Source of the DNA: Candidatus Moraniibacteriota bacterium
Lineage (GTDB): Bacteria; Patescibacteriota; Minisyncoccia; Moranbacterales; UBA1568
Assembly: GCA_052034935.1 (NCBI GenBank)
Contig: JBPOIB010000003.1
Location: 1 to 32,406, forward strand
DNA length: 32,406 nt
Direction: 5' to 3'
Each line of letters opens with the position of its first letter. Positions within the stretch are counted from its first letter, which is position 1. A program made the translations under genes and the position numbers. The notes below the pieces were generated by a model that was given only the letters and a program-made list of their open reading frames with translations, ran no database searches and had not been told where the DNA came from. Positions 2,921-28,374 of the stretch are shown here, piece by piece.

Positions 2921-3121
2921 CTATTTCACGACGTACGGGATGAGTGCCATAAACCGGGCGCGCTTGATCGCGAGCGAGAGGTTGCGCTGCTCAGTCGAGG
3001 TCAGGCCGAAACGCTTCGGAGGATAGATCTTCCCCTGTGAGTTGAGAAAACGGCGGAGAAAATAGGCGTCCTTGTAGTCGAGACGGCCGAGCTTCTTCCG
3101 GGAGTCTTGGTCGAGAGTCAT
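2921..3121 (-). CDS. rpsR: 30S ribosomal protein bS18
   Basis: 66 aa with DYKDAYFLRRFLNSQGKIYPPKRFGLTSTEQRNLSLAIKRARFMALIPY, the typical S18 core. It sits in the conserved rpsF-ssb-rpsR context. Confidence 0.9.
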   Translation of the reverse strand: MTLDQDSRKKLGRLDYKDAYFLRRFLNSQGKIYPPKRFGLTSTEQRNLSLAIKRARFMALIPYVVK

Positions 3122-3147
3122 AGTGTGTGCGAGATTACAAAATTGGT

Positions 3148-3627
3148 TTAAAACGGAACGTCTTCGATCTTGATTTCCTTCTCATCATCGAGGTTGATGG
3201 TCGGAATCTCCTCCTCCTGAACCGGTGCAGCATTTCTCTGTGCTGCCCCAGCATTCGACTGCGGACGCGGCGCGCTATTTCCACCGGCCGCGGAACCACC
3301 GGCCCGGGATCCAAGCTGCATATTCTCGCCGACGACTTCGGTCGTACGGCGCTGACTGCCGTCTTTCGCAGTATATTCCCGGGTCTGGAGTCGTCCTTCG
3401 ACGAAGAGTTCCTGACCCTTGGTTAGGTACTGGCCGGCGATTTCCGCCTGTCGGCCCCAGAGGATAACCGTATGGAACTCCGTCTTCTCCTGTTTCTGTC
3501 CACCCTTATCAGTCCAGAAATTATTCGTCGCCATGCCGATGGTTGCGACGCTTTGACCGGTCGGCGTCGTTCGGATTTCTGGATCCCGAGTGAGGCGCCC
3601 GACGAGGATGACTTTGTTCACGTTCAT
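3148..3627 (-). CDS. ssb: Single-stranded DNA-binding protein
   Basis: 159 aa. OB-fold N-terminus MNVNKVILVGRLTRDPEIRTTPTGQSVATIGMATN...FHTVILWGRQAE, then a Gly/Ala/Gln-rich linker and an acidic C-terminal tip ...KIEDVPF. Confidence 0.95.
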   Translation of the reverse strand: MNVNKVILVGRLTRDPEIRTTPTGQSVATIGMATNNFWTDKGGQKQEKTEFHTVILWGRQAEIAGQYLTKGQELFVEGRLQTREYTAKDGSQRRTTEVVGENMQLGSRAGGSAAGGNSAPRPQSNAGAAQRNAAPVQEEEIPTINLDDEKEIKIEDVPF

Positions 3628-3663
3628 AGCTTTTTTGCTAAGAATTTAGGCTGTGACTATGAT

Positions 3664-4206
3664 TTAGATATCAAGTTTCTCTTTGAGTTTGGCATCGATC
3701 TCTTCCTTGCTCACCTGCTTTGCCGGAGCGGCTGGAGTAGTGGGGGCTGCTGTCGGAGCGGCTGACTGGGCGGCCGGGGCATACCCAGTTGTGGGACGCT
3801 CGCGGCGAAAACCACCTCGGGCACGAGGATCCTTCTTGGTATACTCAGTACGCTCAATCGGCTTCAATTCAGGAAGCGAATCAGCACGGAGAATGAGCAC
3901 CCGGAGAATATTTTTCGAGAGCGCAAACTTCCGGTTAAGGCGAGTGATTGCATCTCCCTTGGCCATTTCGGCTTCGAATTCCTTTGAGGAAAGCTCGCTC
4001 TTGTCCGGCAAAGTGAAGCGGCGGGCGATATAAACGCCCCGAGTCTCGTCCTCAACTTCATAGGCAAGCTTCCGCTTATCCTGGGTTTCTGGAGCAAGGA
4101 ACTCAGCTCCTTCCTCCCGGCAGATTCCTTCGACCTCAGCACGGATCGCATCAAGCATTGGCTCTTTGCTCTCCCCGACGAGATAAAACAGTTCGTATTC
4201 ACGCAT
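3664..4206 (-). CDS. rpsF: 30S ribosomal protein bS6 with long Ala/Pro-rich C-terminal extension
   Basis: The N-terminal ~110 aa fit S6 (MREYELFYLV...KRKLAYEV...GVYIARRF...ILRVLILR). It is first in the rpsF-ssb-rpsR order. The tail RARGGFRRERPTTGYAPAAQSAAPTAAPTTPAAPAKQ...KLKEKLDI is extra. Confidence 0.88.
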   Translation of the reverse strand: MREYELFYLVGESKEPMLDAIRAEVEGICREEGAEFLAPETQDKRKLAYEVEDETRGVYIARRFTLPDKSELSSKEFEAEMAKGDAITRLNRKFALSKNILRVLILRADSLPELKPIERTEYTKKDPRARGGFRRERPTTGYAPAAQSAAPTAAPTTPAAPAKQVSKEEIDAKLKEKLDI

Positions 4207-4337
4207 ACCGCTTCGTACTTAAGAGTTTACAGATAACAAAAGCCCACAAACAATTTCGAAAGTCGTGGGACGGGCGGACTCCTATCTCTCGCAGGGCGAT
4301 GAGCGGGAATCACTCGGACTTTCTCTGTTGTCTCAAG

Positions 4338-4366
4338 AGGATACCAGAATCCCTTCTTTTTGGCAA
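4338..4366 (-). promoter_or_regulatory. Promoter candidate for the rpsF operon
   Basis: On the minus strand: TTGCCA (4366-4361), 17 nt, TATCCT (4343-4338). This would give a leader of about 125 nt. The -10 is weak. Confidence 0.3.
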
Positions 4367-4411
4367 GCCAACGTGATCGGCGCGAGAGGATTAATAAACG
4401 ACCGGTTTTTA

Positions 4412-4449
4412 TAAAAAAGAGAGGCTTTCGCCCCCTCCTCTCTTTTTTC
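4412..4449 (-). terminator. Rho-independent terminator after the 1247-aa surface protein gene
   Basis: The stem AGAGAGG / CCTCTCT (4418-4424 with 4437-4443) is flanked by an A-run and a T-run. The minus strand reads ...CCTCTCTTTTTTAT. Confidence 0.6.
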
Positions 4450-4461
4450 ACTGCCTATTAT

Positions 4462-7400
4462 TTATTGCCCGACCTCTTTCCAGTTGAAGTCGCAGGTCCG
4501 AGTACCGTTACAGACGATGGTGCCGCTGCAACCATCATTGATATTGAACGTATTACCGGCACAAGTATTGGCGGCGGTCGCCGCTGGGCCGGCATCGGTG
4601 CAGGCCGCGGTCGGGGTGCAGGAGACCGTGAAGCTTTCCGAGTCTGAGCTTGTCATATACGTCGCGGAGATATTCGTCGTGCCGCTCGCGACCGCTGTGA
4701 TAAGTCCCTTACTTCCCGCATTGTTCACGGTCGCGATGCCGGCGTTGGCGCTCGACCAGTTGATGCTCGGATCAGTGGTTACTTCGATTGCCCCGGCGAG
4801 ATTGCTGCAATTCACTGTGCCGCTTGTGACATAGTAGGCGCGCATCTGAGAAGTGGCTGTCGGAGCGACCGGAGCAGGTGTCGTCGGACAGAGTTTGAAA
4901 TCAGTCGGCGGCGCGACAATGACAGCTGTCGAATCGCCCGCATTACCAGAGACGCCGGTACAGCTTATGGTAAACGTATACGTCGTTCCTGGGCTAAGGG
5001 AATTTGCTGGGATAGTATAACTCCCGTTATTTATTGGCATTGGCGGCATTACGAGAGGAAACCCCGGAACAAACGAGCTCGGTGTTATCGTACAGGAGCT
5101 GACGCCAGAAGAGGTCCAGCCTAGATCGAGATTCTGATTCACAACGATACTCGCTGATCCGGAGGCCTGCACGACAGAGTGAGCGCCGCGAAGGTATTTC
5201 CACAGCTTCTGCCACCAGGTATCCGGTACAGACGAAACCACGGCCCCGGGAGTGGCGAAGACGCTCGCTCCGGCACCAGTACAGACAGAGCGATACGCTT
5301 TCGCCATACACATCCCCGTCTCATAGGTCGGAGCAAAGCCCTTGAACTTAGTCGAGGAGTCATAACACCGATACCCGCTCGCATAAGCGGACGAATCCCC
5401 GCCGGTGGCAACCGAGCCCGGACAGACATTCGGGATAAACCAGGTGACTTTTGTGGGATCGCAGATATCCTCCGTCCGAGAGTTATTCTGAACCTCGGCA
5501 AACCCATTCACGGAACCGATGTCTTCCCAAGCGCAGGCCGGACCACAGGCAAGTGTGACCGGTGCGCAGAAAGCGTCCGTATGTTCTTCATCGAGCCCTG
5601 TCCCCCATTGAAACCAGTTCACCCCGACCATGACGTGATTCGGCGGACAAAGCGTCTCTTTGAATGAGCTCGAGAGAACCGCCCCGGATCCGTTGACTCT
5701 CACTACCGGGGCACCGAGAGTCGTCCCAGCTGGCGGCGTCGCACAGTAGGCATCAATATGCTCTTCATCAACCGACGAAAAGACCCCGTACATCCGGGTC
5801 CCGACCATCACCTGGCCGGCTGGGCACATGACCGTTTTATCTCCCGGCCTCAGATCAGCAAACGCATTCGCCGCCTCATACCAGGCAGGCGAACCGAAAC
5901 CAGCCCCTAGCGGAGCACAGCGCGCCTCTTCATACTCCTCATCGACTTCGTTGTGATGCTGCCAGGAGCGTGTCCCAGTCATCACGTGACCGGCCGGACA
6001 AAGCGAGGTTTTGATCCGTTCGCTCACTCCTGAAGCCGCGCCGCCGAACCAGAAATTCGGAGTGGTCAGCCCGGCCCAAGCGTTCGCCCCGAGAACGCAG
6101 ATCGGCGGTGCGGGTGTCGCGCAGACTGGGATGGAACTGATTTCCGCCATCGTATGCCCGCTCAAGGGGTAACCAGCGCAGGTACCGGAGCAGATACCCG
6201 GCGCCGCGGTCGTATTCCACCAGCCCTGGTTATACGCTCCCGTGCTCGGATTCCTCACCCGATAAATATCGGCATTGAAACTGCAATTGACCGCACAAAC
6301 GTCGTTCGACTGGACCGTCGTCCCGGTGCGGCAAGCGGAACAGGAGAGGTCGGCAGAGCAGTAGCCCCGATTTCCTGTATAGGAATATGCGTTCATGGGA
6401 GCACAACTCACCGTACTGGGATTTGAATCAACGAAGGCGCGCTCTCCTGGAGCGCAATCTGTCATTACTGGCTCTCCCGCCACGCAATTCACTCCACCGC
6501 TCCAGACGGAATCACCGCAACCCGCCGGACTATAGCTAGAAGCAACAGTGAACGGAAGTGGCCCCTGATCCGTGGTACCTCCTGAACAACCACCCCAGCA
6601 ATTACCGATCATTTGTAAAAAAATACTACGAACACTATGAGGACCAGCGACAAGAGAAACCGGTATCGTAATCGATTGGTTTCCATTTCCTGAACCGCTC
6701 CCGCCCATAGGAACACTTGCAACGGTCGCGATGCCCTGACGAGTCAGTATGGGTTCTGAATCAAAAGCGGCATTTGTTCCAGAGGTGTTGAGTAGATAAC
6801 TGATCGTACAACTACCAGTACCTCGGGAATCTACATCACCAAACATGCTGACTGAACCGACAAGGGTCGCTGCCTCGCCCGGAGCATAAGGGGTTGCCTT
6901 GTTCATATTGACTGTACCGGTGCAGCTCCAGGCGACTTCAGAACTTCCGAATGTATCAGCTTGCAACGTGATCGCCGATGCCTGCGGCGCTGTCAATACG
7001 AATGCACCAGTACCGAAGAGAACAAAAGAAAAGAGGCTCAGCATACTCCGATGCCTCAACTGGTACCGGACAAGGATGCTAAGAGAGATAAGTAGGATGG
7101 CTCCAATAATCAGAAGTGCTCTCCAGTCGGATTTTTTACTGCCGGAAACTGCCATCGTAACGGGATGGACAGCCGCCTCTCCATCAACAGCTGCTGACTG
7201 CACATTGAATGGTTCTTCGAGCGAATCAAGGGCTTCACCCTGGGCATTCCGGAGCTTGAAGAGGGCTATGCCCACAGTACAAGTTGTTTCAATAGTTACC
7301 TCTTTAACCAGCCCCTCGCCAATTGCCGTCGCTTCACCACAAAGCTCTCCAGCCGTATCCTTCAATGCAACCGACACGACCGTTCCTTTCACGGGTGATG

Positions 7401-8205
7401 CTACCACTGACACGGTTGCCTGCATCTCGGCCGATTCGCTGGCAGCAGCAATGACGGCGTTCCGAATCTGCCCATAGCTTCCTGGCATACGGAATGGGAA
7501 ATAAGTCAGCCGGCCGGTCTCAACTTCTTCTATCGCTACCCAGTAGCGGCCAGCCGGAAGGTCTGGCGAAATCGTTTTGGCTGTGCCGCCGATAATGATC
7601 GCCTCATCCTTTCGGGTGGGTGGAACGAAGAGCGAGTGGGGGTAATACCGTATCGAGACCTCTCTTTCCTCTTTTTCCACGTAGCAAGCGAACGTTGGTT
7701 CTGATACCGAAGCCGCACAGCTTACTGGCTGACGAGAAGCTTCGGGCAGCTTTTTCTCAAGCACTTTCTGCGTACCGAGCGGCAGGCCATCGGTCGTTTC
7801 CGCCTGGACGAAAACCGTCACTATTCCACTGAGAAAACTGGGGAGGCGATAAGAAAACGGGATGGTCTTTATCTCTCCTTGTTGAACGGAGCTGACTTCG
7901 CTTTCAATCGGCTGGACATGGACGAGATTGCCGGCCTTATCCCGGACGATGACCGCGAACGCGATGCGGTTCTGCTGCCCCATATTGCCGAGGAGTGAAA
8001 ACGTCCCGCTCACGACCCCGTCAGCTTCAGCTGCCTGGACATCTCCGACATTGACATCGGCTACGACGAAACTTCTCACCTCTTCAGAAGCGCTCTGATC
8101 GGCAGCTAGCGACGACGAGACGCTCGCGGACTGAGCCAAGACCGCTACCGGGATGAAAAGAATGGAGGCACTGAAAAGAAACAGCGAAAGTATTCTTGGC
8201 AACAT
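4462..8205 (-). CDS. Large exported Cys-rich cell-surface protein (signal peptide, internal TM hairpin, 3x repeat module, Ig-like and Big_2-like domains)
   Basis: Single 1247-aa ORF with an N-terminal signal peptide MLPRILSLFLFSASILFIPVAVLAQSAS. Two hydrophobic segments lie at aa 361-379 and 388-411. I count about 40 Cys in aa 420-1247. There is an Ig-like segment (LGWTSSGVSSCTITP...TTYTFTISCTGVSGNAG) and a Big_2-like segment (INWSSANAGIATVNNAGSKGLITAVASGTTNISATY). Confidence 0.85.
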   Translation of the reverse strand: MLPRILSLFLFSASILFIPVAVLAQSASVSSSLAADQSASEEVRSFVVADVNVGDVQAAEADGVVSGTFSLLGNMGQQNRIAFAVIVRDKAGNLVHVQPIESEVSSVQQGEIKTIPFSYRLPSFLSGIVTVFVQAETTDGLPLGTQKVLEKKLPEASRQPVSCAASVSEPTFACYVEKEEREVSIRYYPHSLFVPPTRKDEAIIIGGTAKTISPDLPAGRYWVAIEEVETGRLTYFPFRMPGSYGQIRNAVIAAASESAEMQATVSVVASPVKGTVVSVALKDTAGELCGEATAIGEGLVKEVTIETTCTVGIALFKLRNAQGEALDSLEEPFNVQSAAVDGEAAVHPVTMAVSGSKKSDWRALLIIGAILLISLSILVRYQLRHRSMLSLFSFVLFGTGAFVLTAPQASAITLQADTFGSSEVAWSCTGTVNMNKATPYAPGEAATLVGSVSMFGDVDSRGTGSCTISYLLNTSGTNAAFDSEPILTRQGIATVASVPMGGSGSGNGNQSITIPVSLVAGPHSVRSIFLQMIGNCWGGCSGGTTDQGPLPFTVASSYSPAGCGDSVWSGGVNCVAGEPVMTDCAPGERAFVDSNPSTVSCAPMNAYSYTGNRGYCSADLSCSACRTGTTVQSNDVCAVNCSFNADIYRVRNPSTGAYNQGWWNTTAAPGICSGTCAGYPLSGHTMAEISSIPVCATPAPPICVLGANAWAGLTTPNFWFGGAASGVSERIKTSLCPAGHVMTGTRSWQHHNEVDEEYEEARCAPLGAGFGSPAWYEAANAFADLRPGDKTVMCPAGQVMVGTRMYGVFSSVDEEHIDAYCATPPAGTTLGAPVVRVNGSGAVLSSSFKETLCPPNHVMVGVNWFQWGTGLDEEHTDAFCAPVTLACGPACAWEDIGSVNGFAEVQNNSRTEDICDPTKVTWFIPNVCPGSVATGGDSSAYASGYRCYDSSTKFKGFAPTYETGMCMAKAYRSVCTGAGASVFATPGAVVSSVPDTWWQKLWKYLRGAHSVVQASGSASIVVNQNLDLGWTSSGVSSCTITPSSFVPGFPLVMPPMPINNGSYTIPANSLSPGTTYTFTISCTGVSGNAGDSTAVIVAPPTDFKLCPTTPAPVAPTATSQMRAYYVTSGTVNCSNLAGAIEVTTDPSINWSSANAGIATVNNAGSKGLITAVASGTTNISATYMTSSDSESFTVSCTPTAACTDAGPAATAANTCAGNTFNINDGCSGTIVCNGTRTCDFNWKEVGQ
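5560..6099 (-). repeat. Three tandem ~60-aa protein repeats inside the surface protein (aa ~703-882)
   Basis: The cores are LCPAGHVMTGTRSWQHHNEVDEEYEEARCAP, MCPAGQVMVGTRMYGVFSSVDEEHIDAYCATP and LCPPNHVMVGVNWFQWGTGLDEEHTDAFCAP. The repeats have diverged at the DNA level. Confidence 0.75.
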
Positions 8206-8261
8206 AGGTAAAAGTATGGTTTTCTTTTGCTTTTATCATAACACAGCTCGGTGTGAAAAAT

Positions 8262-8308
8262 TATAAAAAGAAAAGCGCCCACCCCCCGAAACATCGAGGA
8301 GTGGGAGC
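8262..8308 (-). terminator. Rho-independent terminator after the high-GC lipoprotein gene
   Basis: Imperfect GC-rich stem (CCCAC 8278-8282 with GTGGG 8301-8305, plus flanking pairs). On the minus strand it is followed by CTTTTCTTTTTATAATTTTT. Confidence 0.5.
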
Positions 8309-8322
8309 CGGCACAGTGCGCG

Positions 8323-9801
8323 TTACTGTGCGTTGCCAGGAGCGTAGCTCGCGAGGCCGACGGGCGAATTGCCCAAGGCCAGGGTCCGCGTGACCACGAG
8401 CGAGTCGAGTCCGATGCTCATGACCATCCCGTTACCGCAGGTCACCCAGAGCTCATTGCCGAGGATCGCCAGCTTCTTCGGCCCGCTGCCGGCGCCGAGG
8501 CTGAGCTGAGCGACTTCCTGGCGGCCCGAAAGGCTGTACACGTACACCTTGCTTTCGCCATCGCTGACGAATACGCGGTCCTTCGCCATCGCGAGGGCCA
8601 GGTCTTCGGGGCGCTGCTGCATGCGCGTGAAGCCGAGATCCATCACCTCCGTTCGCCCGTTCGTCGGGTCGACGATGGAGATGTTCTTGTCGCCGGCATT
8701 CGCCACGTAGACGTGTCCGGTCACTTCGTGGACACGGAACGCCATCGGCACGGAACCGACCGCATAGGTCTGTTCGACCGCGTAGGTGGCCGGATTCAGC
8801 CTCACCAGAGTGCCCGGAGTGCCCGCCGGCGGGAAGACTTGGCTCACCGAAGTGGTCAAGGCATTGATGGCGTAGAGCCATTTCGCCGGAGCGGTCCCGT
8901 ACTGGAGCTTCGTCGTGAACATGTCGGCAGCCGCGAGAGTGTTGTTCGCACCATCGAAGGTCGGCAGATTGGTCATCCGATCGAAGCACTTGACCCGGTT
9001 CTGCGAAACACCGTCAGGAACACTTCCGCTCATGGCGGCACAGACGTCGGTCTCGGTGAGCGCAAGGCCCCAGACCAGATCGATTCTCGCCAGCGTCGGA
9101 TCGAGGTCGATCGACGGAAGGACATCATCCGTCACCAGGTCGCGAACGTAGATCTTGAAGCCGCCGCAGGATGCGAAGTAGACCTTGGCCGTTTTCGAAT
9201 CGACTGTGATGGCGCAGAACGGGCCGAAACCCGGCTGGCCATTGCCGGCCTGGAAGCCGACTTGTTTCACGGTACCGGCGGCACTGTCGACGATGGCGAC
9301 GGCCTTACTGCCATCCACTTCGGGAACCAGGCTGGCATAGAGCTTCGCCGTGGTCGCGACAGCCTTCTTCGCCGTCCGATAGTTCACCGTGACCGGCTGG
9401 CCCTTGTTGCCAGCCATGTCGGTCGCAGCCGGAATGGTCGCCGTGACCACCGTATCAGCCGGGAGTTCGGCTTGGGGCGAAAGCGACATCTTCTTGGCTG
9501 CGCCGTCGCAGCCGACCGCAGCATCGACACCGGCGATCTTGACGACCGTCCCGATCACACCGGAGCAAGCCAGGCTTTCGTTGTAGGTCGCTTCGACCGA
9601 CGCGGTCAGAGCGACACCAGTCGCGCCTTCGGTCGGGGTGACACTTGCCACCTGAGGCGGGGTCGTATCACCGGCGACCGGCGGCGGGTTGGCAACCGGC
9701 GGAGGCGAACCTCCGCCGCCTCCGCCACAGGCAGAGAGGGACAGAACTGCGGCCAGGAGAACCCCGGCCGCCCGAGAGCGAGAAAACAGAGCGAAAGCCA
9801 T
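8323..9801 (-). CDS. Lipoprotein with SbsA/Big_5-like Ig domain and YVTN-type beta-propeller repeats (high-GC gene)
   Basis: ORF 8323..9843. The start is set at ATG 9801 (MAFALFSRSRAAGVLLAAVLSLSAC, lipobox LSAC) because AGGAGG lies 6 nt upstream. DTTPPQVASVTPTEGATGVAL is a typical SbsA-like Ig domain start. YVANAGDKNISIVDPTNG resembles YVTN beta-propeller repeats. Confidence 0.8.
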   Translation of the reverse strand: MAFALFSRSRAAGVLLAAVLSLSACGGGGGGSPPPVANPPPVAGDTTPPQVASVTPTEGATGVALTASVEATYNESLACSGVIGTVVKIAGVDAAVGCDGAAKKMSLSPQAELPADTVVTATIPAATDMAGNKGQPVTVNYRTAKKAVATTAKLYASLVPEVDGSKAVAIVDSAAGTVKQVGFQAGNGQPGFGPFCAITVDSKTAKVYFASCGGFKIYVRDLVTDDVLPSIDLDPTLARIDLVWGLALTETDVCAAMSGSVPDGVSQNRVKCFDRMTNLPTFDGANNTLAAADMFTTKLQYGTAPAKWLYAINALTTSVSQVFPPAGTPGTLVRLNPATYAVEQTYAVGSVPMAFRVHEVTGHVYVANAGDKNISIVDPTNGRTEVMDLGFTRMQQRPEDLALAMAKDRVFVSDGESKVYVYSLSGRQEVAQLSLGAGSGPKKLAILGNELWVTCGNGMVMSIGLDSLVVTRTLALGNSPVGLASYAPGNAQ

Positions 9802-9901
9802 AATGGGCCTCCTGTAAGAACAAGTTGTCAAAACCCAAGGCACGAACCCTAGGCAACGGGGGGTTTGAAACCGGGATTAGACCCGACTTCTCACTATCAG
9901 A

Positions 9902-9930
9902 AATGTAAGGATTTTTCCTCTGTTTGTCAA
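9902..9930 (-). promoter_or_regulatory. Sigma70-like promoter candidate upstream of the high-GC lipoprotein gene
   Basis: On the minus strand: TTGACA (9930-9925), 17 nt, TACATT (9907-9902), in AT-rich flanking DNA. Confidence 0.4.
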
Positions 9931-9991
9931 GTTTTTTCGCTTATTTCAAGCTTTTTTTTCGAAAGACACTCCCGAGATCCTGCCGACCAGG

Positions 9992-11263
9992 CTAATTGAA
10001 TAATTTCTTATAGTTTTTGGACCAGTAGACGATGCCATTGTAGTAGTTCGCATTGAATGCCCCGAGGTAATTGATCGAGGCGTTTTTAATCGCCTTCTCG
10101 GAATCCGAAGTCGCGCCCGCCTTCCGAAGCTTGAGTGCCATCGCCATCACCCCATCGGTCAGATTCCACGGATCAGGATTCTTGTGCCCAGTCTTGGCAC
10201 GGATATCAGCCGAGTAGCCAAGCCAGACATCGGACATAAACTGCGCCACGCCCATCGCCCCGCCCTGGCCGATATAGTTAGGCGAGCAGGAAACCTTTTT
10301 ATTCTTGCTGTAGCCGAGATCGTCGACGAGGCCGTAAAAAAGATCACGACGCTTGTAGAGAAGGTTAATCGAAGCTTTATATTTGCTCCCGTACTTCTTG
10401 TAGCGGGCAATGGAGACTTTTTCTACCTCTTTATAGGTACACTGGCCGGTATTAGCACCGAGATTTGTCTCCATCTTGAGAAAGCCGTACAACACACCCT
10501 TCGGAACGCCCGTCTCCTTACTCGCGTCCTCCACCGCCCCGCGGATATCCTTAGCATTGTACGATTTACCGGTCAGCGTCGCGAGGTCTCCTTCGAGTTC
10601 TTCCAACTCTTTTTGAAGCCGGCTTACGATTTTTGCCGCATCCTGAACATCTTCGATCGTCTCCTGCTGATCGGCCGCGAGAGTATTCTTTTCCGCCGCT
10701 TTCTTCTGGAGCAGCACTTCATGGTCTTTTTTCGCGTCTTCGATCGAAATCCGCTCTGATTCCGTATCTGACTTGGTCAGAGAAAGTGACTGGAGAATAT
10801 TGGAAATCTTATCCTGAACAGTAAGCAGCTTGTCCGGATTACTGATCACTTCTGAAAAATGTTCCTGATCGACGAGAATACGCGGGAGCGGCCATTCATT
10901 CTGGTAGTAGAGATCCCTCATCAGTGTCGCGAGGAGCGTTTTTTCCTCATCAATACGCTCTTCGAGGACCGCAAGCTCGGCCTGCTTCCGCTCGATATTG
11001 TTCTCGGCCTGTTTGATCTTGATCTGGGTTTCCGCGATCGCTCGCTGAGTCGAAGAAAGTGACGCATTGATATTGGCGAGCTCATTCTCGAGCGCCTTTT
11101 TCTTCGCCTCCGCCTCTTTCAGCTTCTTCTCGACATCCGATTTCTCTTCTTCGATATCCTCGACTTCTTCGGCAGCAAAAACCGGACTCGGCCAGGGTGC
11201 GAGCGAACAAGCGGCGAGGAAAAGGGCAAGAAGAATCAGTTGTGGTTTTATTTTGACAACCAT
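9992..11263 (-). CDS. Exported coiled-coil protein with C-terminal lytic transglycosylase (SLT_2/MltB-like) domain
   Basis: ORF 9992..11437 would overlap the recA 3' end and its terminator. I prefer ATG 11263 (MVVKIKPQLILLALFLAACSLAPW, a signal/lipoprotein-like start). About 200 aa are heptad-rich (KKLKEAEAKKKALENELANINASL...). The C-terminus has LKMETNLG and GGAMGVAQFMSDVW, which resemble the MltB-family GAMGxxQFMPS motif. Confidence 0.75.
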   Translation of the reverse strand: MVVKIKPQLILLALFLAACSLAPWPSPVFAAEEVEDIEEEKSDVEKKLKEAEAKKKALENELANINASLSSTQRAIAETQIKIKQAENNIERKQAELAVLEERIDEEKTLLATLMRDLYYQNEWPLPRILVDQEHFSEVISNPDKLLTVQDKISNILQSLSLTKSDTESERISIEDAKKDHEVLLQKKAAEKNTLAADQQETIEDVQDAAKIVSRLQKELEELEGDLATLTGKSYNAKDIRGAVEDASKETGVPKGVLYGFLKMETNLGANTGQCTYKEVEKVSIARYKKYGSKYKASINLLYKRRDLFYGLVDDLGYSKNKKVSCSPNYIGQGGAMGVAQFMSDVWLGYSADIRAKTGHKNPDPWNLTDGVMAMALKLRKAGATSDSEKAIKNASINYLGAFNANYYNGIVYWSKNYKKLFN

Positions 11264-11269
11264 TCTTCT

Positions 11270-11275
11270 ATTATA
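11270..11275 (-). promoter_or_regulatory. TATAAT -10 box 6 nt upstream of ATG 11263 (possible leaderless transcript)
   Basis: The minus strand reads GGTATAATAGAAGAATGGTTGTC. I found no good -35. Confidence 0.3.
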
Positions 11276-11282
11276 CCTCATA

Positions 11283-11308
11283 CGAAAAAAGGCCGTTTCA
11301 GGCCTTGA
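11283..11308 (-). terminator. Rho-independent terminator after recA
   Basis: Stem AAGGCC / GGCCTT (11289-11294 with 11301-11306) with a 6-nt loop. The minus strand continues TTTTTTCG. Confidence 0.6.
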
Positions 11309-11330
11309 TTCGAGCGATGACTTCGAGAGA

Positions 11331-12350
11331 CTAGACTGCTTCAGCAGCATGCACTTTCTTCCAGACAGCTTTTTCAATCTCCTTACCGACTTTCGGATTC
11401 TCCTTGAGGAATGTCCGAGCCTGTTCCCGTCCGACACCGATCTTCACCTCGCCGAAACTGTGCGTATTCCCCTGTTTCTTGATGATCTCGTACTTCACGC
11501 CGGTATCGAGCACATCGTCGCTCCAGGAAATTCCTTCGTTATACATGATGAAGAACGATGTGGTTCGGAACGGCGGCGCGACCTTGTTCTTCACCACCTT
11601 CACATTGACCTGATTACCGACGACCTCCTCGCCTTTCTTCACCTGAGCACTCTTCCTGACTTCGATGCGAACCGAGGAGTAGAACTTGAGCGCGTTCCCA
11701 CCAGTGGTCGTTTCCGGATTGCCGAACATCACACCGATCTTCATACGAAGTTGGTTGATGAAAACGACGACGACATTCGAGCGCGAAATAATCGCCGTTA
11801 ACTTCCGAAGTGCCTGACTCATGAGCCGGGCCTGACGGCCGACATGCTGATCACCCATCTCCCCCTCGATTTCGGCACGTGGCACAAGTGCCGCCACCGA
11901 GTCGACAACGATAATATCAACTGCATTGGAACGAACCAGTGTCTCGACGATATCGAGCGCCTGTTCGCCCGAATCCGGCTGGGAAATAAGGAGCTCATTG
12001 ATATTCACACCAATTCGTTTGGCGTATTCAGGATCAAGTGCATGCTCGGCGTCAATGAAGGCAGCAACACCACCCGCCTTCTGAGCATTGGCAATCGTAT
12101 GGAGCGTCAGCGTCGTCTTGCCGGATGATTCCGGCCCGTAGACCTCGACGATCCGGCCGCGCGGGATGCCGCCAATACCGAGCGCGATATCGAGCGAAAG
12201 TGAACCAGTCGGGATCGCTTCAACATCCACTCGGCGGACATCGCCAAGCTTCATAAGCATTCCCTCGCCGAACTTTCCTTTGATTTCATCTACGACTGCA
12301 TCGACACTTTTTCTCCCATTACCCTTCTCTGCTGCTTTCTCTTTTGTCAT
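11331..12350 (-). CDS. recA: Recombinase RecA
   Basis: 339 aa with [36 protein letters not shown] (Walker A), [10 protein letters not shown] and [10 protein letters not shown]. Confidence 0.97.
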
Positions 12351-15835: not shown

Positions 15836-16027
15836 AGTAGCTTCAGTATAGCAGCCGAGGAGTCGGCTCAAAAGACTTGGTAATACCCGTTGGGCAAAAA
15901 AAGAACGCCGAGGGCGCACCCCTCCGCGTTTCTGACTTTTACCCATCTAGTATAGCACAAAAATTGCCCATCCGCAAGTATTTTCGATCACGAGAAACAC
16001 TATCATTTTTCGTCTTTAGTCGAAGCA

Positions 16028-24235: not shown

Positions 24236-24393
24236 GATGAGCCTCCAAGTTGGACGAGTTAGGAAAGAGCAGGGGTTCCTGCACGCCCCTACTAAAGCAC
24301 AATTTAAGAGACTTAGGGAAGGGGGCAAAAATTTTCAAATCAAGAATACAATACTGCAGATCACGTAACTTGGGAGGTAATGTGTGGGAGAGC

Positions 24394-24954
24394 TTACCTG
24401 CGGATATTTTGAATGTCATAAATAAGTCGTCCGAGATCACTGCCCTGACTAGATACTTTATCTGACATAAAGTAAATCGCTTTATAGTATTTTTTTGTAG
24501 AATTGTACATCTTTAAGTCACACGTAAGAATTTTTGCATCTAGTGCAATTCCTTCAGTGACCACTAAGAAATCGATAGCCGTAAGTTTTTTGATTTCTTG
24601 GCGAGAGCACTTTATATAGTTATCAAAAATTTCGTCAAAGCTGTGCTTTTTAACACGCCCATGGGCAGTAAGCTTCTCTCCAATTAATCTTAATATTTTA
24701 GAGCGAGCAGATTTTACAGGAATCTTGTTTACCCTTATTAGGCGCGACATTAATTCCAGCGCCACAAGTACGGGGACATAAAATTTTGGTTTATAAGGAA
24801 GTAACGCGCCTAATGAAGAAGTTGCGGCGGTATGATGTGAATCCTTTTCATCAAGAATAGCTACAAGCCAAGACGTATCTGGAAGAATTAGAAAACGCCC
24901 CTCCTCTTCGCTGCCCGCCTTAGTTTCTTTCATAGTCTGTGCCGCAGTAGACAT
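24394..24954 (-). CDS. PIN-domain (VapC-like) ribonuclease, orphan
   Basis: The four acidic residues have PIN-like spacing: D26 (ILPDTSWL), E67 (VALELMS), D128 (LTAIDFLVV) and D146 (ILTCDLK). The gene body is markedly AT-rich. An alternative start is Met8 at 24933. Confidence 0.65.
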   Translation of the reverse strand: MSTAAQTMKETKAGSEEEGRFLILPDTSWLVAILDEKDSHHTAATSSLGALLPYKPKFYVPVLVALELMSRLIRVNKIPVKSARSKILRLIGEKLTAHGRVKKHSFDEIFDNYIKCSRQEIKKLTAIDFLVVTEGIALDAKILTCDLKMYNSTKKYYKAIYFMSDKVSSQGSDLGRLIYDIQNIRR

Positions 24955-24971
24955 AGAAGAAAAAATTACCT

Positions 24972-25742
24972 TTATTTCAGCTTCTTCCAGTCGAATTTCC
25001 AGGGATCGGTTTTCCTTGCCGGGGCGATATCGCCATGACCAACCACCGACTTGATCTTGTACCGGGTTTTGATATCAGCGATCAGATCGTTCACTGCGGC
25101 ATACTGCTTTTCGGTATAGCCATCCTCCAGATTCGCAATCATCTCGATGCCGATTGAAAAATCATTCACGTTTTTTCGCCCATCAGTCATCTTCGACGAG
25201 CCCGCATGATAGGCAATGTTCGCCTCCTCGACGAGGCGATAGATGACCCCCTTTCGATCGATGATATAGTGAGCGCCGACACCATACGTTTCGTATTGGG
25301 AAATCGTTTTTTCTAGATCATATTCATCGCCACCGGAAGCATTGTACGAAGAATGGAGCACTACGGTATCGATTGTCCGGGGTGTAGGCGGCAAACGGTA
25401 GCCGAAACGGATCGGCCGAGATTCGATTGGGATGTTTGCCTTTTCGGAAACGCCTGCCTCAGGCGTTGAAGCAGCCTCTGTCGGTGGAACTGGGGCAGTC
25501 CACTGGTCGACCGGCTCGGCGGAAGACGGTCCTGGTGACAGCGTCGGCTCCGGGAGAGGAACCGGAACTTCTTCGATTACGACTGGATTCTCGGGGGGAA
25601 TATCTTCTTTCGACGATGTTTCGAGAATAATAGGCTCATTTTCAAAGGCCGTCTCGGCAATCGGATCACCGAAAAACCCGTACCACATACCGCTGATGGA
25701 AACGGTCAGAAAAGAGACGATGACTAGAAAGAGTCGAATCAT
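24972..25742 (-). CDS. Membrane-anchored N-acetylmuramoyl-L-alanine amidase (Amidase_2 / AmpD-PGRP type)
   Basis: N-terminal TM MIRLFLVIVSFLTVSISGMWYGFF, then a Pro-rich linker and a catalytic domain. The domain has IDTVVLHSSY, AHYIIDRKGVIYRLV..IAYHAG, NDFSIGIE and VVGHGDIAPARKTDP. The His-to-Asp spacing of 10 matches the AmpD Zn ligands. Confidence 0.85.
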   Translation of the reverse strand: MIRLFLVIVSFLTVSISGMWYGFFGDPIAETAFENEPIILETSSKEDIPPENPVVIEEVPVPLPEPTLSPGPSSAEPVDQWTAPVPPTEAASTPEAGVSEKANIPIESRPIRFGYRLPPTPRTIDTVVLHSSYNASGGDEYDLEKTISQYETYGVGAHYIIDRKGVIYRLVEEANIAYHAGSSKMTDGRKNVNDFSIGIEMIANLEDGYTEKQYAAVNDLIADIKTRYKIKSVVGHGDIAPARKTDPWKFDWKKLK

Positions 25743-27566: not shown

Positions 27567-28133
27567 CTAATTCCGCTTAACAACAAAGGCGTAGTGGAAC
27601 CCCCCAACCGAAGGCTGGCCGACGACGGATAGTCCGGCCGCTTCGATCATTTTCGCAAGGTCTTCTGGCTTGATCCGAAGTTCTTTCTCTGGGCCGACAA
27701 TCGCTTCGCTTGGATCCCACTCGATAATGAGCGCGCGCCCTTCGGGCCTCAGGATGCGCGCCACTTCGCGAAGAATGACAGATTTATCCTTATTCTGGAG
27801 CAAGACATCCTTGGCGATAACCCAGTCAACCGACGCTGTTTCAAGACCGGAGCCGTTCGCTCGCTCGAGATTGCAGCGTTGAGCGATGATATTGCCAAGA
27901 TTGAGTGTCTTCGCCCGACCCGCGATCGCTTCAAGTGCAGATGGAAGGACATCGAGGGCGTAGACTTTCCCATCTCTCCCAACCGCTCGGGCGAATTCGA
28001 AAGAGAAATACCCCGAACCGGCGCCGAAATCAGCCACGGTATCCCCCGGCGCAACAGAGAGCGCCCGGATGACAATGTTCGGTTCGACAAAAGTAAGTCC
28101 CTGGGGTGCATCCATAAGAAAGATTCTTCTCAT
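27567..28133 (-). CDS. Class I SAM-dependent methyltransferase
   Basis: Start is at the internal Met (MRRIFLMDAPQG...) of ORF 27567..28370. The longer N-terminus is antisense to the tRNA-Ser. Motif I is VADFGAGSGYFSFEFA, and the post-I/II regions are KVYALDV and DWVIAKDVL. Confidence 0.8.
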   Translation of the reverse strand: MRRIFLMDAPQGLTFVEPNIVIRALSVAPGDTVADFGAGSGYFSFEFARAVGRDGKVYALDVLPSALEAIAGRAKTLNLGNIIAQRCNLERANGSGLETASVDWVIAKDVLLQNKDKSVILREVARILRPEGRALIIEWDPSEAIVGPEKELRIKPEDLAKMIEAAGLSVVGQPSVGGFHYAFVVKRN

Positions 28134-28277
28134 CAATTGTATACCGAATAGACAATCTTTCCAAAGGCGAAACCGGTTCAGTTGCTCTCTCGACGTTCTT
28201 TCGCTACACTGTGCTCGTCGTGCTAAAACCGTATTTAAACAGGATTCAAAAGACTTTGGAGAAGCGAGCAAGCAAAC

Positions 28278-28364
28278 GGAAAGGTGGCCGAGTGGTTTAA
28301 GGTACTTGCTTGGAAAGCAAGCGTATGAGAAATCGTACCGGGGGTTCGAATCCCCCCCTTTCCG
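28278..28364 (+). tRNA. tRNA-Ser (anticodon GGA), type II with long variable arm
   Basis: Hand-folded. Acceptor GGAAAGG/CCTTTCC, D region GCC-GAGTGGTTTAA-GGT, anticodon stem CTTGC/GCAAG with loop TTGGAAA. Variable arm GTATG-AGAAAT-CGTAC, T arm GGGGG-TTCGAAT-CCCCC, discriminator G. CCA is not encoded. Confidence 0.9.
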
Positions 28365-28374
28365 CACCAAAGAT

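Follow-up and report, generated by a model that had tools for sequence, protein, structure and literature searches.

The amelioration model of Lawrence and Ochman concerns compositionally atypical islands that were acquired horizontally. The gene described here resembles such islands in that its GC, GC3 and oligonucleotide usage deviate sharply and over the length of one gene. It differs from them in that its distribution among relatives is not patchy, its CAI is not low, it has no mobility signatures, and no donor was found. Considered as a genomic island, it shows the atypical composition but neither poor codon adaptation, nor absence from close relatives, nor mobility signatures, nor a distant donor. 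A different comparison is with Borrelia ospC, a variable surface-lipoprotein locus with allele exchange. As at ospC, one lipoprotein gene at a fixed chromosomal site has deeply divergent alleles between conserved flanks, together with intragenic mosaicism and phylogenetic incongruence with the neighboring genes, although the fold and the organism are unrelated.

For the gene product, the described relatives are relatives in fold. Methanosarcina mazei 1L0Q likewise joins a beta-propeller to an Ig-like domain in a protein of the cell surface, but it is an archaeal S-layer protein without a lipid anchor, is 18% identical, and carries its Ig-like domain at the C-terminus rather than the N-terminus. 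E. coli YncE is a periplasmic protein for which ssDNA binding has been reported. It matches the product in its propeller fold and both are secreted, but YncE is only 14% identical and has neither an Ig domain nor a lipobox. With respect to composition, recombining bacterial genes have been found to be GC-richer, independent of selection on codon usage (Lassalle et al. 2015, PMC4450053). The gene resembles the genes in that study in being recombining, in having a GC3 above that of its genome, and in having a bias that runs partly against the T-ending codons favored by housekeeping genes. That study describes a statistical trend over many genes, whereas here a single gene shows +0.10 in GC and +0.15-0.20 in GC3. 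It is also unlike the trend in that its excess extends across lineages of ~30% identity and its codon choice is host-optimal.

The gene, its signals and its product

The window is a 32,406-nt stretch of a Candidatus Moraniibacteriota contig, and the gene, its signals and the downstream partner gene lie on its minus strand. The GC-rich "island" is one ORF at 8323..9801, encoding a 492-aa lipoprotein from an ATG at 9801. Its neighbors are a gene for an SLT_2 transglycosylase and, downstream at 4462..8205, a partner gene for a giant, 1247-aa secreted surface protein, identified from the ORF list and Pfam, with a Big_2 domain at its C-terminus (Pfam) and a host-like gene GC of 0.558. The earlier note had pointed to a promoter, a terminator and a Shine-Dalgarno sequence (SD) belonging to this one gene, and all three are present. 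A predicted sigma-70-type promoter, TTGACA-17-TACATT, occupies 9902..9930; it makes 10/12 consensus matches in a consensus scan, where shuffles lead one to expect 0.4. Every homologue examined is preceded by TTGACA, 17 nt and TAxxxT, and the -10 element is often TG-extended. The TTGACAA box farther downstream was considered as a second promoter and rejected, there being no -10 element after it. At the other end, a terminator scan places an intrinsic terminator at 8268..8305, with a GC-rich stem at 8305-8278 (12 bp, 8 of them G-C pairs) that is followed by a T run. AGGAGG (9808-9813) stands 6 nt before ATG 9801. As claimed, there is no SD before efp, ssb, rpsF, recA, ftsK or rpoC, and rpoB has only a far-upstream GGAG; SD use is unusual for the lineage. 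A strong SD precedes 8/8 homologues checked and, being conserved throughout the family, is not a donor relic. Indeed, promoter, SD and leader are kept in all homologues examined.

The translation begins with a predicted lipoprotein signal peptide (9727..9801) ending in the lipobox L-S-A-C. The signal MAFALFSRSRAAGVLLAAVLSLSA-C25 has a positively charged n-region and a hydrophobic h-region, and the lipobox fits the pattern [LVI][ASTVI][GAS]C with its invariant Cys. A Gly6 run and a Pro-rich linker come directly after the lipobox, and Cys25 and the Gly residues after it are invariant in both alignments (17 distinct sequences). A Big_5 bacterial Ig-like domain (Pfam PF13205) follows at aa 45-143 (9373..9669), with an E-value of 8.5e-14 and 52.6 bits against a gathering score of 23.6, covering profile positions 1-105 of 105; the same domain is recorded, in precomputed form, for all 7 close homologues. 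The remainder (aa ~150-489; 8335..9354) is modeled by AlphaFold2 as an all-beta C-terminal domain of ~340 residues (pLDDT 80.5, pTM 0.72), which Foldseek places in the YVTN/YncE structural type. The best PDB match is 1L0Q, a YVTN propeller plus PKD S-layer fragment (E 1.3e-11, target-normalised TM-score 0.63). The 7-bladed YncE structures 3VGZ/7SEU give target-normalised TM-scores of 0.70-0.73 with an rmsd of 3.0-3.8 A, and the 7-bladed designer protein 7BID and YncE give 0.70-0.82. The predicted fold is that of a beta-propeller. The sequence models stay below their cut-offs: 13.6 bits against 27.85 for the YVTN repeat model TIGR02276, 16.8 against 20 for Pfam NHL, and 19.3 against 400 for the YncE equivalog NCBIfam NF052280. 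The earlier note had described a lipoprotein with an Ig domain and YVTN propeller repeats; the lipobox, the Ig domain and a predicted propeller fold agree with this, with the YVTN repeat model below its cut-off. We infer a surface lipoprotein in which an N-terminus with a lipid anchor is followed by a Gly/Pro linker, a Big_5 domain and a propeller; exposure at the surface and a binding role would fit this architecture.

Between promoter and start codon lies a predicted structured 5' leader of ~100 nt (9802..9895), defined from alignments, folds and a covariance model. It would form the hairpins P1 (9867-9890) and P2 (9834-9853), followed by a conserved UUUUGACAA (9825-9833), the SD, and a hairpin P3 (9793-9812) that would pair the SD with the start codon region. 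The leaders of 7 close homologues align with an identity much above that of the coding sequence. P1, P2 and P3 recur in single-sequence folds of most of 11 leaders, including those of copies with 30% protein identity; the leaders of L091 and L093 fold differently. When the leaders are aligned with the covariance model, 94.9% of cells pair and compensatory changes occur in 9/20 pairs, statistics that were reached by 0/500 shuffles and were much lower in slid controls. The covariance model, R1, matches upstream of these genes, its sole other match being a weak one in L031 (E 0.51). R1 retrieved only 2/5 of the most distant leaders at E<=1, so the deep conservation of the leader depends partly on single-sequence folds. 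As judged from this covariation, the leader structure is conserved. The GC content of the leader is ~0.50. Rfam gave no match over the whole window at gathering scores, and over 9750-10000 only a chance-level CRISPR-DR10 (E 6.2), and the leader is a candidate new cis-regulatory RNA. A separate idea, that GGGTCTAATCCCGG is an attachment site or tRNA fragment, was rejected: neither ARAGORN nor Rfam finds anything there, and GGGTCTAATCCCGG makes up the stem and loop of P1.

Base composition and codon choice

The compositional observations in the earlier note were accurate. Its hand counts of G+C, 42/60 at 8341-8400 and 29/60 at 10021-10080, were reproduced, the spacer at 8206-8270 is AT-rich (29% GC), and the long shadow ORFs 8713..9852 (plus strand) and 8453..8989 (minus strand) are in the ORF list. 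The shift is coextensive with one gene: GC in 100-nt bins is 0.38 at 8201-8300, 0.56-0.72 over 8301-9800, and then 0.51 and 0.38. The gene has a GC of 0.639 (GC1/2/3 = 0.631/0.509/0.777) in a window with a mean of 0.535, and the 20 other tabulated ORFs have a GC of 0.39-0.58 and a GC3 of 0.34-0.71. The sliding-window, GC3 and tetranucleotide checks that the note had proposed bear out the deviation. The gene has z=4.5 in a comparison with 559 other windows of 1479 nt (mean 0.531, sd 0.024, max 0.588), and its tetranucleotide correlation with the rest of the window is the lowest of all (r=0.17; others 0.45 +/- 0.10).

What produces this composition? Encoding the same protein with host codon usage gives a GC of 0.590 and a GC3 of 0.63-0.67, against the observed 0.639 and 0.777. 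About half of the GC excess comes from the protein, which is rich in Ala/Gly/Val/Pro/Thr and poor in Lys/Glu/Ile, and the remainder is a persistent, strong bias to G/C-ending codons. Neither is peculiar to this copy. Homologues have a GC of 0.577-0.639 and a GC3 of 0.65-0.78, next to host flanking genes with a GC of 0.44-0.59, and the excess is present in every copy, whatever the GC of the host, down to ~27%-34% protein identity. Four-fold sites differ by 40-64% between allele groups, mostly by >50%, and are near saturation, so third positions should be close to stationary and any donor signal should be erased. The high GC belongs to the gene family and does not reflect a donor genome. When synonymous changes on terminal branches are polarised by parsimony, 64 run from GC to AT and 10 in the opposite direction, but these W>S and S>W counts are judged unreliable, with a bias toward inferring GC-to-AT changes. 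The excess of GC-to-AT changes would fit slow decay from a higher GC; because parsimony is biased for GC-rich, saturated outgroups, the counts were not used to decide between amelioration and maintenance.

Codon usage gives a host-referenced test. With the window's own efp, ssb, rpsF, recA, rpoB and rpoC as the reference set, the gene has a CAI of 0.702, within the range of the reference genes themselves (0.63-0.78), and all 9 other genes have 0.36-0.65. Random codons matched for GC3 give 0.565 +/- 0.020, which places the gene at z=6.8, and housekeeping-gene codon usage applied to the gene gives 0.715. The codon choice is native: the gene uses the same codons as the highly expressed genes of the lineage, to a somewhat greater degree. 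With 10 lineages pooled, GC3 rises from the giant gene (0.51) through other genes (0.55) and housekeeping genes (0.65) to the GC-rich gene (0.71). The GC3 of 0.777 in the window compares with 0.67 predicted from housekeeping-type usage, and the gene prefers GGC/CGC/CTG and avoids the T-ending GGT and CGT that housekeeping genes favor. Because of this excess and this avoidance, translational selection alone is not the full explanation. The codon usage and the expression signals together suggest that the gene is highly expressed.

Residency, allele exchange and the competing explanations

The gene is not confined to one assembly. L002, a Logan assembly of SRR34217545, is 100% identical over 2974-10166 in a 7.2-kb contig that covers both junctions. 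A homologue is also present in contigs from 10 other samples or genomes. In 8 of them it occupies the slot next to the RecA and SLT genes, with a giant gene on the other side wherever the contig reaches that far, and in 2 it is beside another giant protein. Full-length homologues comprise 7 at 57%-100% identity and ~20 more at 30%-45%. Wherever contigs are long enough, homologues with 57%-88% identity are in the slot (L001, L003-L009, L090), as are homologues with 27%-34% identity in L091, L094 and L097; in L093 and L096 a homologue with 27%-34% identity has a different giant protein as its neighbor. Downstream, wherever the contig is long enough, a giant protein (676-1539 aa) is encoded, including at the two loci with another genomic context. 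Among the relatives in the comparison with gene-bearing lineages, only L012, a Moraniibacteriota MAG, has an empty slot; the gene is also missing from the slot in the Parcubacteria relative L010. RecA identity is 81% for L012, against 75%-76% for gene-bearing relatives, and because L012 is no more distant than relatives with the gene, loss in L012 is indicated. As judged from gene order, the slot between the SLT_2 gene and the giant gene was occupied before the lineages of ~75% RecA identity diverged.

Searches for a source elsewhere were negative. The earlier note had proposed to identify a donor clade from homologues, but homologue searches found no donor-like homologue outside the clade's genomic context, and every full-length homologue whose context was read is in a CPR-type neighborhood. 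The lone homologue labeled "Undibacterium sp." is on a contig whose RecA is 96.5% identical to that of the window. A word-indexed protein search with a distant-homologue profile, A4, returned the known close set only, probably dominated by Gly/Pro low-complexity words. The A1 scan of JGI metagenome contigs gave 180 pattern matches, 0 of them confirmed, and that collection seems to lack the clade. A RecA scan of GTDB genomes found no close species representative, the best being 75%-78% identical, so the placement in Patescibacteria near Moraniibacteriota/Parcubacteria is approximate; among species-level genomes, a Candidatus Moraniibacteriota MAG comes nearest. There is no tRNA near the gene (ARAGORN places the sole tRNA of the window at 28278-28365), there are no flanking repeats in 4000-11500, and Pfam finds no integrase or mobility genes among the neighbors at the borders. 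The possibility of a DGR target gene was also rejected, there being no repeats involving the gene and no reverse transcriptase among the neighbors.

What has moved is the allele. Relative to L006, the closest relative, the flanks of the gene in the window have 98%-100% protein identity and a dS of 0.12-0.30, whereas the gene is 60% identical with a dS of 0.96 and a dN of 0.31. Relative to L001 the relation is reversed, with a dS of 1.0-1.4 in the flanks and 0.54 in the gene, and the allele is 86%-88% identical to that of this sister lineage. Nucleotide identity to L006 is 91%-99% from 11600 to ~9702 and then 45%-74% over the remaining gene, which puts the 5' breakpoint at 9650..9750; BLAST homology to L006 restarts at 8283, at the terminator. 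The gene is 93% L006-like over its first 150 nt and 80%-96% L001-like thereafter. The PHI test for recombination among alleles gives p<=0.001. The gene-wide dN/dS of the lipoprotein gene is only 0.13-0.32. Between close relatives the giant gene has a dS of 0.47 against 0.12-0.30 in the flanks. The gene body has been replaced by homologous recombination relative to L006, and the alleles are mosaic. What survives of the idea of an imported segment behind a native promoter is that promoter, leader and signal peptide are native and the body beyond ~9700 comes from a divergent allele of the same family; its donor is a sister lineage rather than a high-GC organism, and GC-richness is not a donor signature.

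Horizontal transfer and misassembly, the explanations offered in the earlier note, can be weighed against these data. A chimeric assembly, with a fragment of a high-GC organism joined into the contig, has in its favor the compositional step itself and nothing else, and can for practical purposes be dismissed: the independent assembly is identical through both junctions, 8 further contigs, which come from different samples, have the gene in the slot, and promoter, leader and signal peptide are seamless, with the leader conserved together with the gene across lineages. Recent import of a foreign, non-ameliorated gene from a high-GC donor would account for the sharp single-gene GC step and atypical tetranucleotide signature, for an SD missing from neighboring genes, and for an allele replaced relative to L006. 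It is nonetheless very improbable, given that the same slot and the same GC excess are found in all relatives examined, to ~30% identity, that the replacement allele is so close to that of L001, that the CAI is housekeeping-like, and that the borders have no mobility genes, tRNA or repeats. An older event, in which the ancestor of the clade acquired the gene from a high-GC donor and protein and codon selection have since held its composition, would be compatible with the slots without the gene in L012 and L010, the atypical composition and tetranucleotide signature, and the SD use that is unusual for the lineage. We consider it improbable too: L012 is not an outgroup to the gene-bearing lineages, codon usage is host-specific, third positions are near saturation, and no donor-like homologue is found outside CPR-type contexts.

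The explanation that we favor, and consider likely, is that the GC-rich segment is a native, old resident surface-lipoprotein gene of an uncultivated lineage of Patescibacteria (CPR), with alleles swapped by recombination in a family that is itself GC-rich. In this reading the gene keeps its slot with its own near-consensus promoter, structured leader, strong SD and terminator. Its GC comes from the Ala/Gly/Val/Pro/Thr-rich protein and from G/C-ending codons that are probably linked to high expression. Divergent mosaic alleles of the mature protein pass between related lineages through homologous recombination, which is anchored in conserved flanks, namely the leader and signal peptide at one end and the terminator at the other, and the window holds an L001-type body behind a native 5' end of L006 type. 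GC-biased gene conversion, or another force that favors GC, may strengthen the codon bias at a recombination-prone locus. That such conversion, in which G/C alleles are favored in heteroduplex repair during frequent recombination, is instead the main cause of the extra GC3 we regard as possible but rather unlikely, and it could act alongside the favored explanation. Recombination at the locus is demonstrated, the GC excess persists whatever the host GC, GGC/CGC/CTG are preferred over the housekeeping-favored GGT/CGT, and the gene fits the pattern of recombining genes in PMC4450053. Against it, the recombining segment does not extend past the gene borders, the leader has no high GC, substitutions on terminal branches are mostly from GC to AT, and gene conversion does not predict the host-specific codon match (CAI z=6.8). 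The adjacent giant gene is divergent (dS 0.47), yet no gene class has a lower GC3; because this gene evolves fast with a low GC3, recombination alone is argued against as the driver of GC.

Implications of the locus

An abrupt rise in GC over one gene that has an SD of its own resembles horizontal transfer or misassembly, and here it is neither. The compositional inference was overturned by comparative context and by the host-referenced codon test, which is a reason for care when islands are called in metagenome-assembled genomes. In the Patescibacteria lineage, interactions at the cell surface are regarded as central, yet they are poorly understood. The locus is a clade-specific, probably abundant, allele-swapping surface lipoprotein with a constant giant partner downstream. 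We tentatively suggest, as a possibility that is more doubtful than the residency of the gene, that the two form a module for variation and control, pairing a hypervariable, abundant lipoprotein with a giant adhesin-like protein. The lipoprotein would be a determinant of interaction with partner cells or phage, and its alleles would be shuffled between lineages. The leader RNA, with P1, P2, the UUUGACAA box and a hairpin sequestering the SD and AUG, would govern translation, and GC-biased gene conversion at a hotspot would keep a GC set-point of ~0.6. With a GC of ~0.6 in hosts of 0.44-0.58, the family is a natural test case for expression-linked codon selection versus GC-biased gene conversion.

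Composition, signals and product of the lipoprotein gene

The lipoprotein gene (8323-9801, minus strand; ATG at 9801, 492 aa) has a GC content of 0.639 (GC1 0.631, GC2 0.509, GC3 0.777), against a mean of 0.535 for the window and 0.39-0.58 (GC3 0.34-0.71) for the 20 other ORFs tabulated there. High GC in a single gene, as the earlier note claimed, is borne out at z=4.5 against 559 other windows of equal length (mean 0.531, sd 0.024, max 0.588). The tetranucleotide correlation with the rest of the window is also lowest for this gene (r=0.17 vs 0.45 +/- 0.10). The hand counts of G+C were exact on recount (42/60 and 29/60, with the spacer at 29% GC), and the described minus-strand signals are all present: an AGGAGG Shine-Dalgarno (SD) sequence, as read from the sequence, 6 nt 5' of the ATG at 9801; a promoter, TTGACA-17-TACATT, at 9930-9902; and a terminator with a 12-bp GC-rich stem at 8305-8278 followed by a T run. 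Both shadow ORFs were found as well.

In the product, a lipobox (LSAC, Cys25) leads into a Gly6/Pro-rich linker and Pfam finds a Big_5 domain (E 8.5e-14), so the proposed lipoprotein with an Ig-like domain stands. The proposed YVTN propeller stands as a fold: AlphaFold2 (pLDDT 80.5) models the C-terminal 340 residues as a beta-propeller whose best PDB match is 1L0Q, a YVTN propeller plus PKD S-layer fragment, and the modelled propeller also resembles 7-bladed YncE. It does not stand by sequence, since the YVTN and YncE sequence models both scored under cut-off. The product would be an Ig plus propeller surface lipoprotein, an architecture of a known kind.

Residence of the gene and exchange of its alleles

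Is the gene an assembly artefact or a recent arrival? A chimeric join is ruled out because L002, assembled by Logan from run SRR34217545, matches window 2974-10166 at 100% identity, both junctions included, and because 10 further samples or genomes yielded contigs with a homologue. Eight of these share the slot, in the order FtsK, RodZ-like, RecA, SLT_2 transglycosylase, lipoprotein gene, followed 3', where the contig reaches further, by the giant secreted protein, S6, SSB, S18 and EF-P; on one short contig, L090, the neighbours were not identified. Full-length relatives at 57-100% identity number only seven among 5.8 billion proteins searched, and ~20 more proteins with this architecture, 30-45% identical, came from searching 1.84 billion representatives with a profile. 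Genomic context was read for five of these distant relatives: three (L091, L094 and L097; 27-34% identity by tblastn) occupy the same RecA-SLT slot, and two (L093 and L096) lie in a different locus, yet again directly 5' of a giant secreted protein gene. Recent import from a high-GC donor, as the earlier note proposed, must be rejected: the slot is shared at 27-34% identity, the GC excess is family-wide, and there is no sign of a high-GC donor.

By RecA, the organism falls within Patescibacteria; at species level the best genomes are a MAG of the Parcubacteria group and a Candidatus Moraniibacteriota MAG (75-81%). One homologue from NCBI carries the label "MAG: Undibacterium sp." (L007, GCA_041730415.1, contig JBGSBW010000036.1), which would suggest a betaproteobacterial donor. 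This candidate is ruled out because the contig's RecA and the window's, which is of Patescibacteria type, are 96.5% identical; the contig also has the window's gene order, and is probably mis-binned, the name being a binning or labelling error. In the Moraniibacteriota MAG, L012, the slot is empty and SLT directly adjoins S6. Gene loss would be the simpler reading, because the slot-bearing L091, L094 and L097 are at least as distant from the window as L012 by RecA, SLT and FtsK. At L012 10990-16800 (JBBCGM010000001.1), the genes for a SulP-type transporter, SLT, S6 and EF-P are each split into several overlapping ORFs, reflecting either long-read indel errors or pseudogenes.

The borders of the lipoprotein gene carry neither a tRNA nor an integrase nor repeats. 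The only RNA gene found in the window is tRNA-Ser(GGA) at 28278-28365 (plus), overlapped by a mechanical ORF (27567..28370, minus) whose 5' end is probably spurious. A PIN-domain gene (24394-24954, minus; Pfam E 2.3e-5) lies in a low-GC stretch at ~24250-25000, with GC 0.389, GC3 0.342 and the window's lowest codon adaptation index (CAI), 0.358. Composition and codon usage make it a better candidate for recent acquisition than the GC-rich lipoprotein gene.

Transfer of another kind is apparent within the clade. The window's closest relative, L006, is 98-100% identical in SLT, S6, SSB and EF-P (dS 0.12-0.30), but its copy of the lipoprotein gene is only 60% identical (dS 0.96, dN 0.31); the copy in L001, which is farther away (flank dS 1.0-1.4), nevertheless reaches 86-88% identity (dS 0.54). 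Identity to L006 runs at 91-99% through SLT, promoter, leader and signal peptide, falls to 45-74% at ~9700, and returns at the terminator, 8283. Indeed, the first 150 nt of the window's gene are L006-like (93%) and the remainder is L001-like (80-96%). Thus, the earlier note's imported body behind a native promoter holds in form, with a breakpoint at ~9700, but the donor is a sister lineage with the same GC-rich family. Among other allele pairs the nearest neighbour also switches along the gene, and the PHI test gives p<=0.001 (593 informative sites). There are at least five allele groups, with mutual identity of about 51-62%, and dN/dS over the whole gene is 0.13-0.32. Horizontal exchange thus takes place, but among related lineages inside the clade, and the locus is a variable surface-protein locus with allelic replacement, a known kind.

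Between the lipoprotein and giant genes, L006 carries two extra genes (3461-5939; 188 aa and 600 aa), and the 3' end of the 600-aa gene has 73% DNA identity to that of the giant gene (window 4462-4992), which points to the whole SLT-to-S6 interval being a variable surface-protein region. The giant protein (4462-8205, minus, 1247 aa) has an N-terminal signal peptide and, at residues ~360-420, a transmembrane-like segment with a second signal-peptide-like stretch after it. Its gene has high GC2 (0.55) and low GC3, and the protein is diverging much faster than the flanks (88.5% identical to L006, vs 98-100%).

Sources of the GC excess

In every lineage examined, the lipoprotein gene has GC 0.577-0.639 and GC3 0.65-0.78, whereas the GC of flanking genes is 0.44-0.59. 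The lipoprotein gene stands at 0.579 in L097, the host lowest in GC, against flanks of 0.44-0.54; in the highest-GC host (L093) the values are 0.597 and 0.58, and the anomaly is gone. Four-fold sites differ by 40-64% between allele groups, mostly >50% and near saturation; therefore no donor signal is left at third positions, and the composition is being maintained. An excess of GC is intrinsic to the gene family.

If the protein were written in the codon usage of the window itself, GC would be 0.590 and GC3 0.63-0.67 (actual values 0.639 and 0.777), so about half of the excess is due to amino-acid composition: Ala (13.8%), Val (11.4%), Gly (10.2%), Thr (8.5%) and Pro (6.3%) are abundant, and Glu, Lys and Ile are few. 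The rest is synonymous, and the codon choice is the host's own. With the window's efp, ssb, rpsF, recA, rpoB and rpoC as reference set, the CAI is 0.702, compared with 0.63-0.78 for the reference genes and lower values for all nine other genes (0.36-0.65). Random codons matched for high GC3 give only 0.565 +/- 0.020 (the gene lies at z=6.8 above), and housekeeping-gene usage for the same protein gives 0.715 +/- 0.018. Pooled over ten lineages, codon preferences agree with those of housekeeping genes in most codon families, and GC3 rises from the giant protein (0.51) through other (0.55) and housekeeping genes (0.65) to the lipoprotein gene (0.71). The gene is probably highly expressed, in keeping with a promoter close to consensus and with its strong SD and terminator.

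Translational selection alone does not fit two features: GC3 exceeds the housekeeping-usage prediction, and GGT and CGT, favoured by housekeeping genes, are avoided. Biased gene conversion (Lassalle et al. 2015, PMC4450053) or a similar GC-favouring force may add to the bias, but as main cause it is opposed by the fast-evolving giant gene next door, which has the lowest GC3.

Translation starts and a conserved leader RNA

A 5-6-nt SD stands at the right distance in 8/8 lipoprotein-gene homologues checked, whereas GGAG or GAGG lies nearby in only 9/65 other genes of these loci. Most genes lack an SD, and several have a -10-like TATACT/TATAAT box 2-10 nt before the start codon (ftsK at 15946, SLT at ~11266, and the same genes in L001, L003 and L091). 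A box so close to the start suggests that leaderless mRNAs are widespread in the lineage.

The lipoprotein gene has a leader of ~100 nt (9802-9895, minus) between promoter and start codon, conserved far above the coding sequence and found upstream of homologues in L001, L003, L006-L009, L090, L091 and L093-L097. It comprises P1 (a GAGAA...UUUUC closing stem), P2, a conserved UUUGACAA box, and P3, which pairs the SD with the start-codon region. This three-hairpin layout recurs in single-sequence folds of most of 11 leaders, 30%-identity homologues included; L091 and L093 fold differently. In a covariance-model alignment, itself fitted to the model and drawn from few independent sequences, 94.9% of cells pair and 9/20 pairs show compensatory changes; 0/500 shuffles matched this covariation, and slid controls were much lower. 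The model matches upstream of these genes and elsewhere only weakly, in L031 (E 0.51), and an Rfam search returned no match. Sequestration of the SD and AUG by P3 suggests translational control, a role that stays a candidate because the alignment is model-fitted and few of its sequences are independent.

Taken together, this is a resident gene, probably highly expressed, for a surface lipoprotein with swapped alleles, and its GC-richness is intrinsic to its family. What makes it noteworthy is an unusually persistent gene-specific GC set-point, together with a leader RNA not described before.
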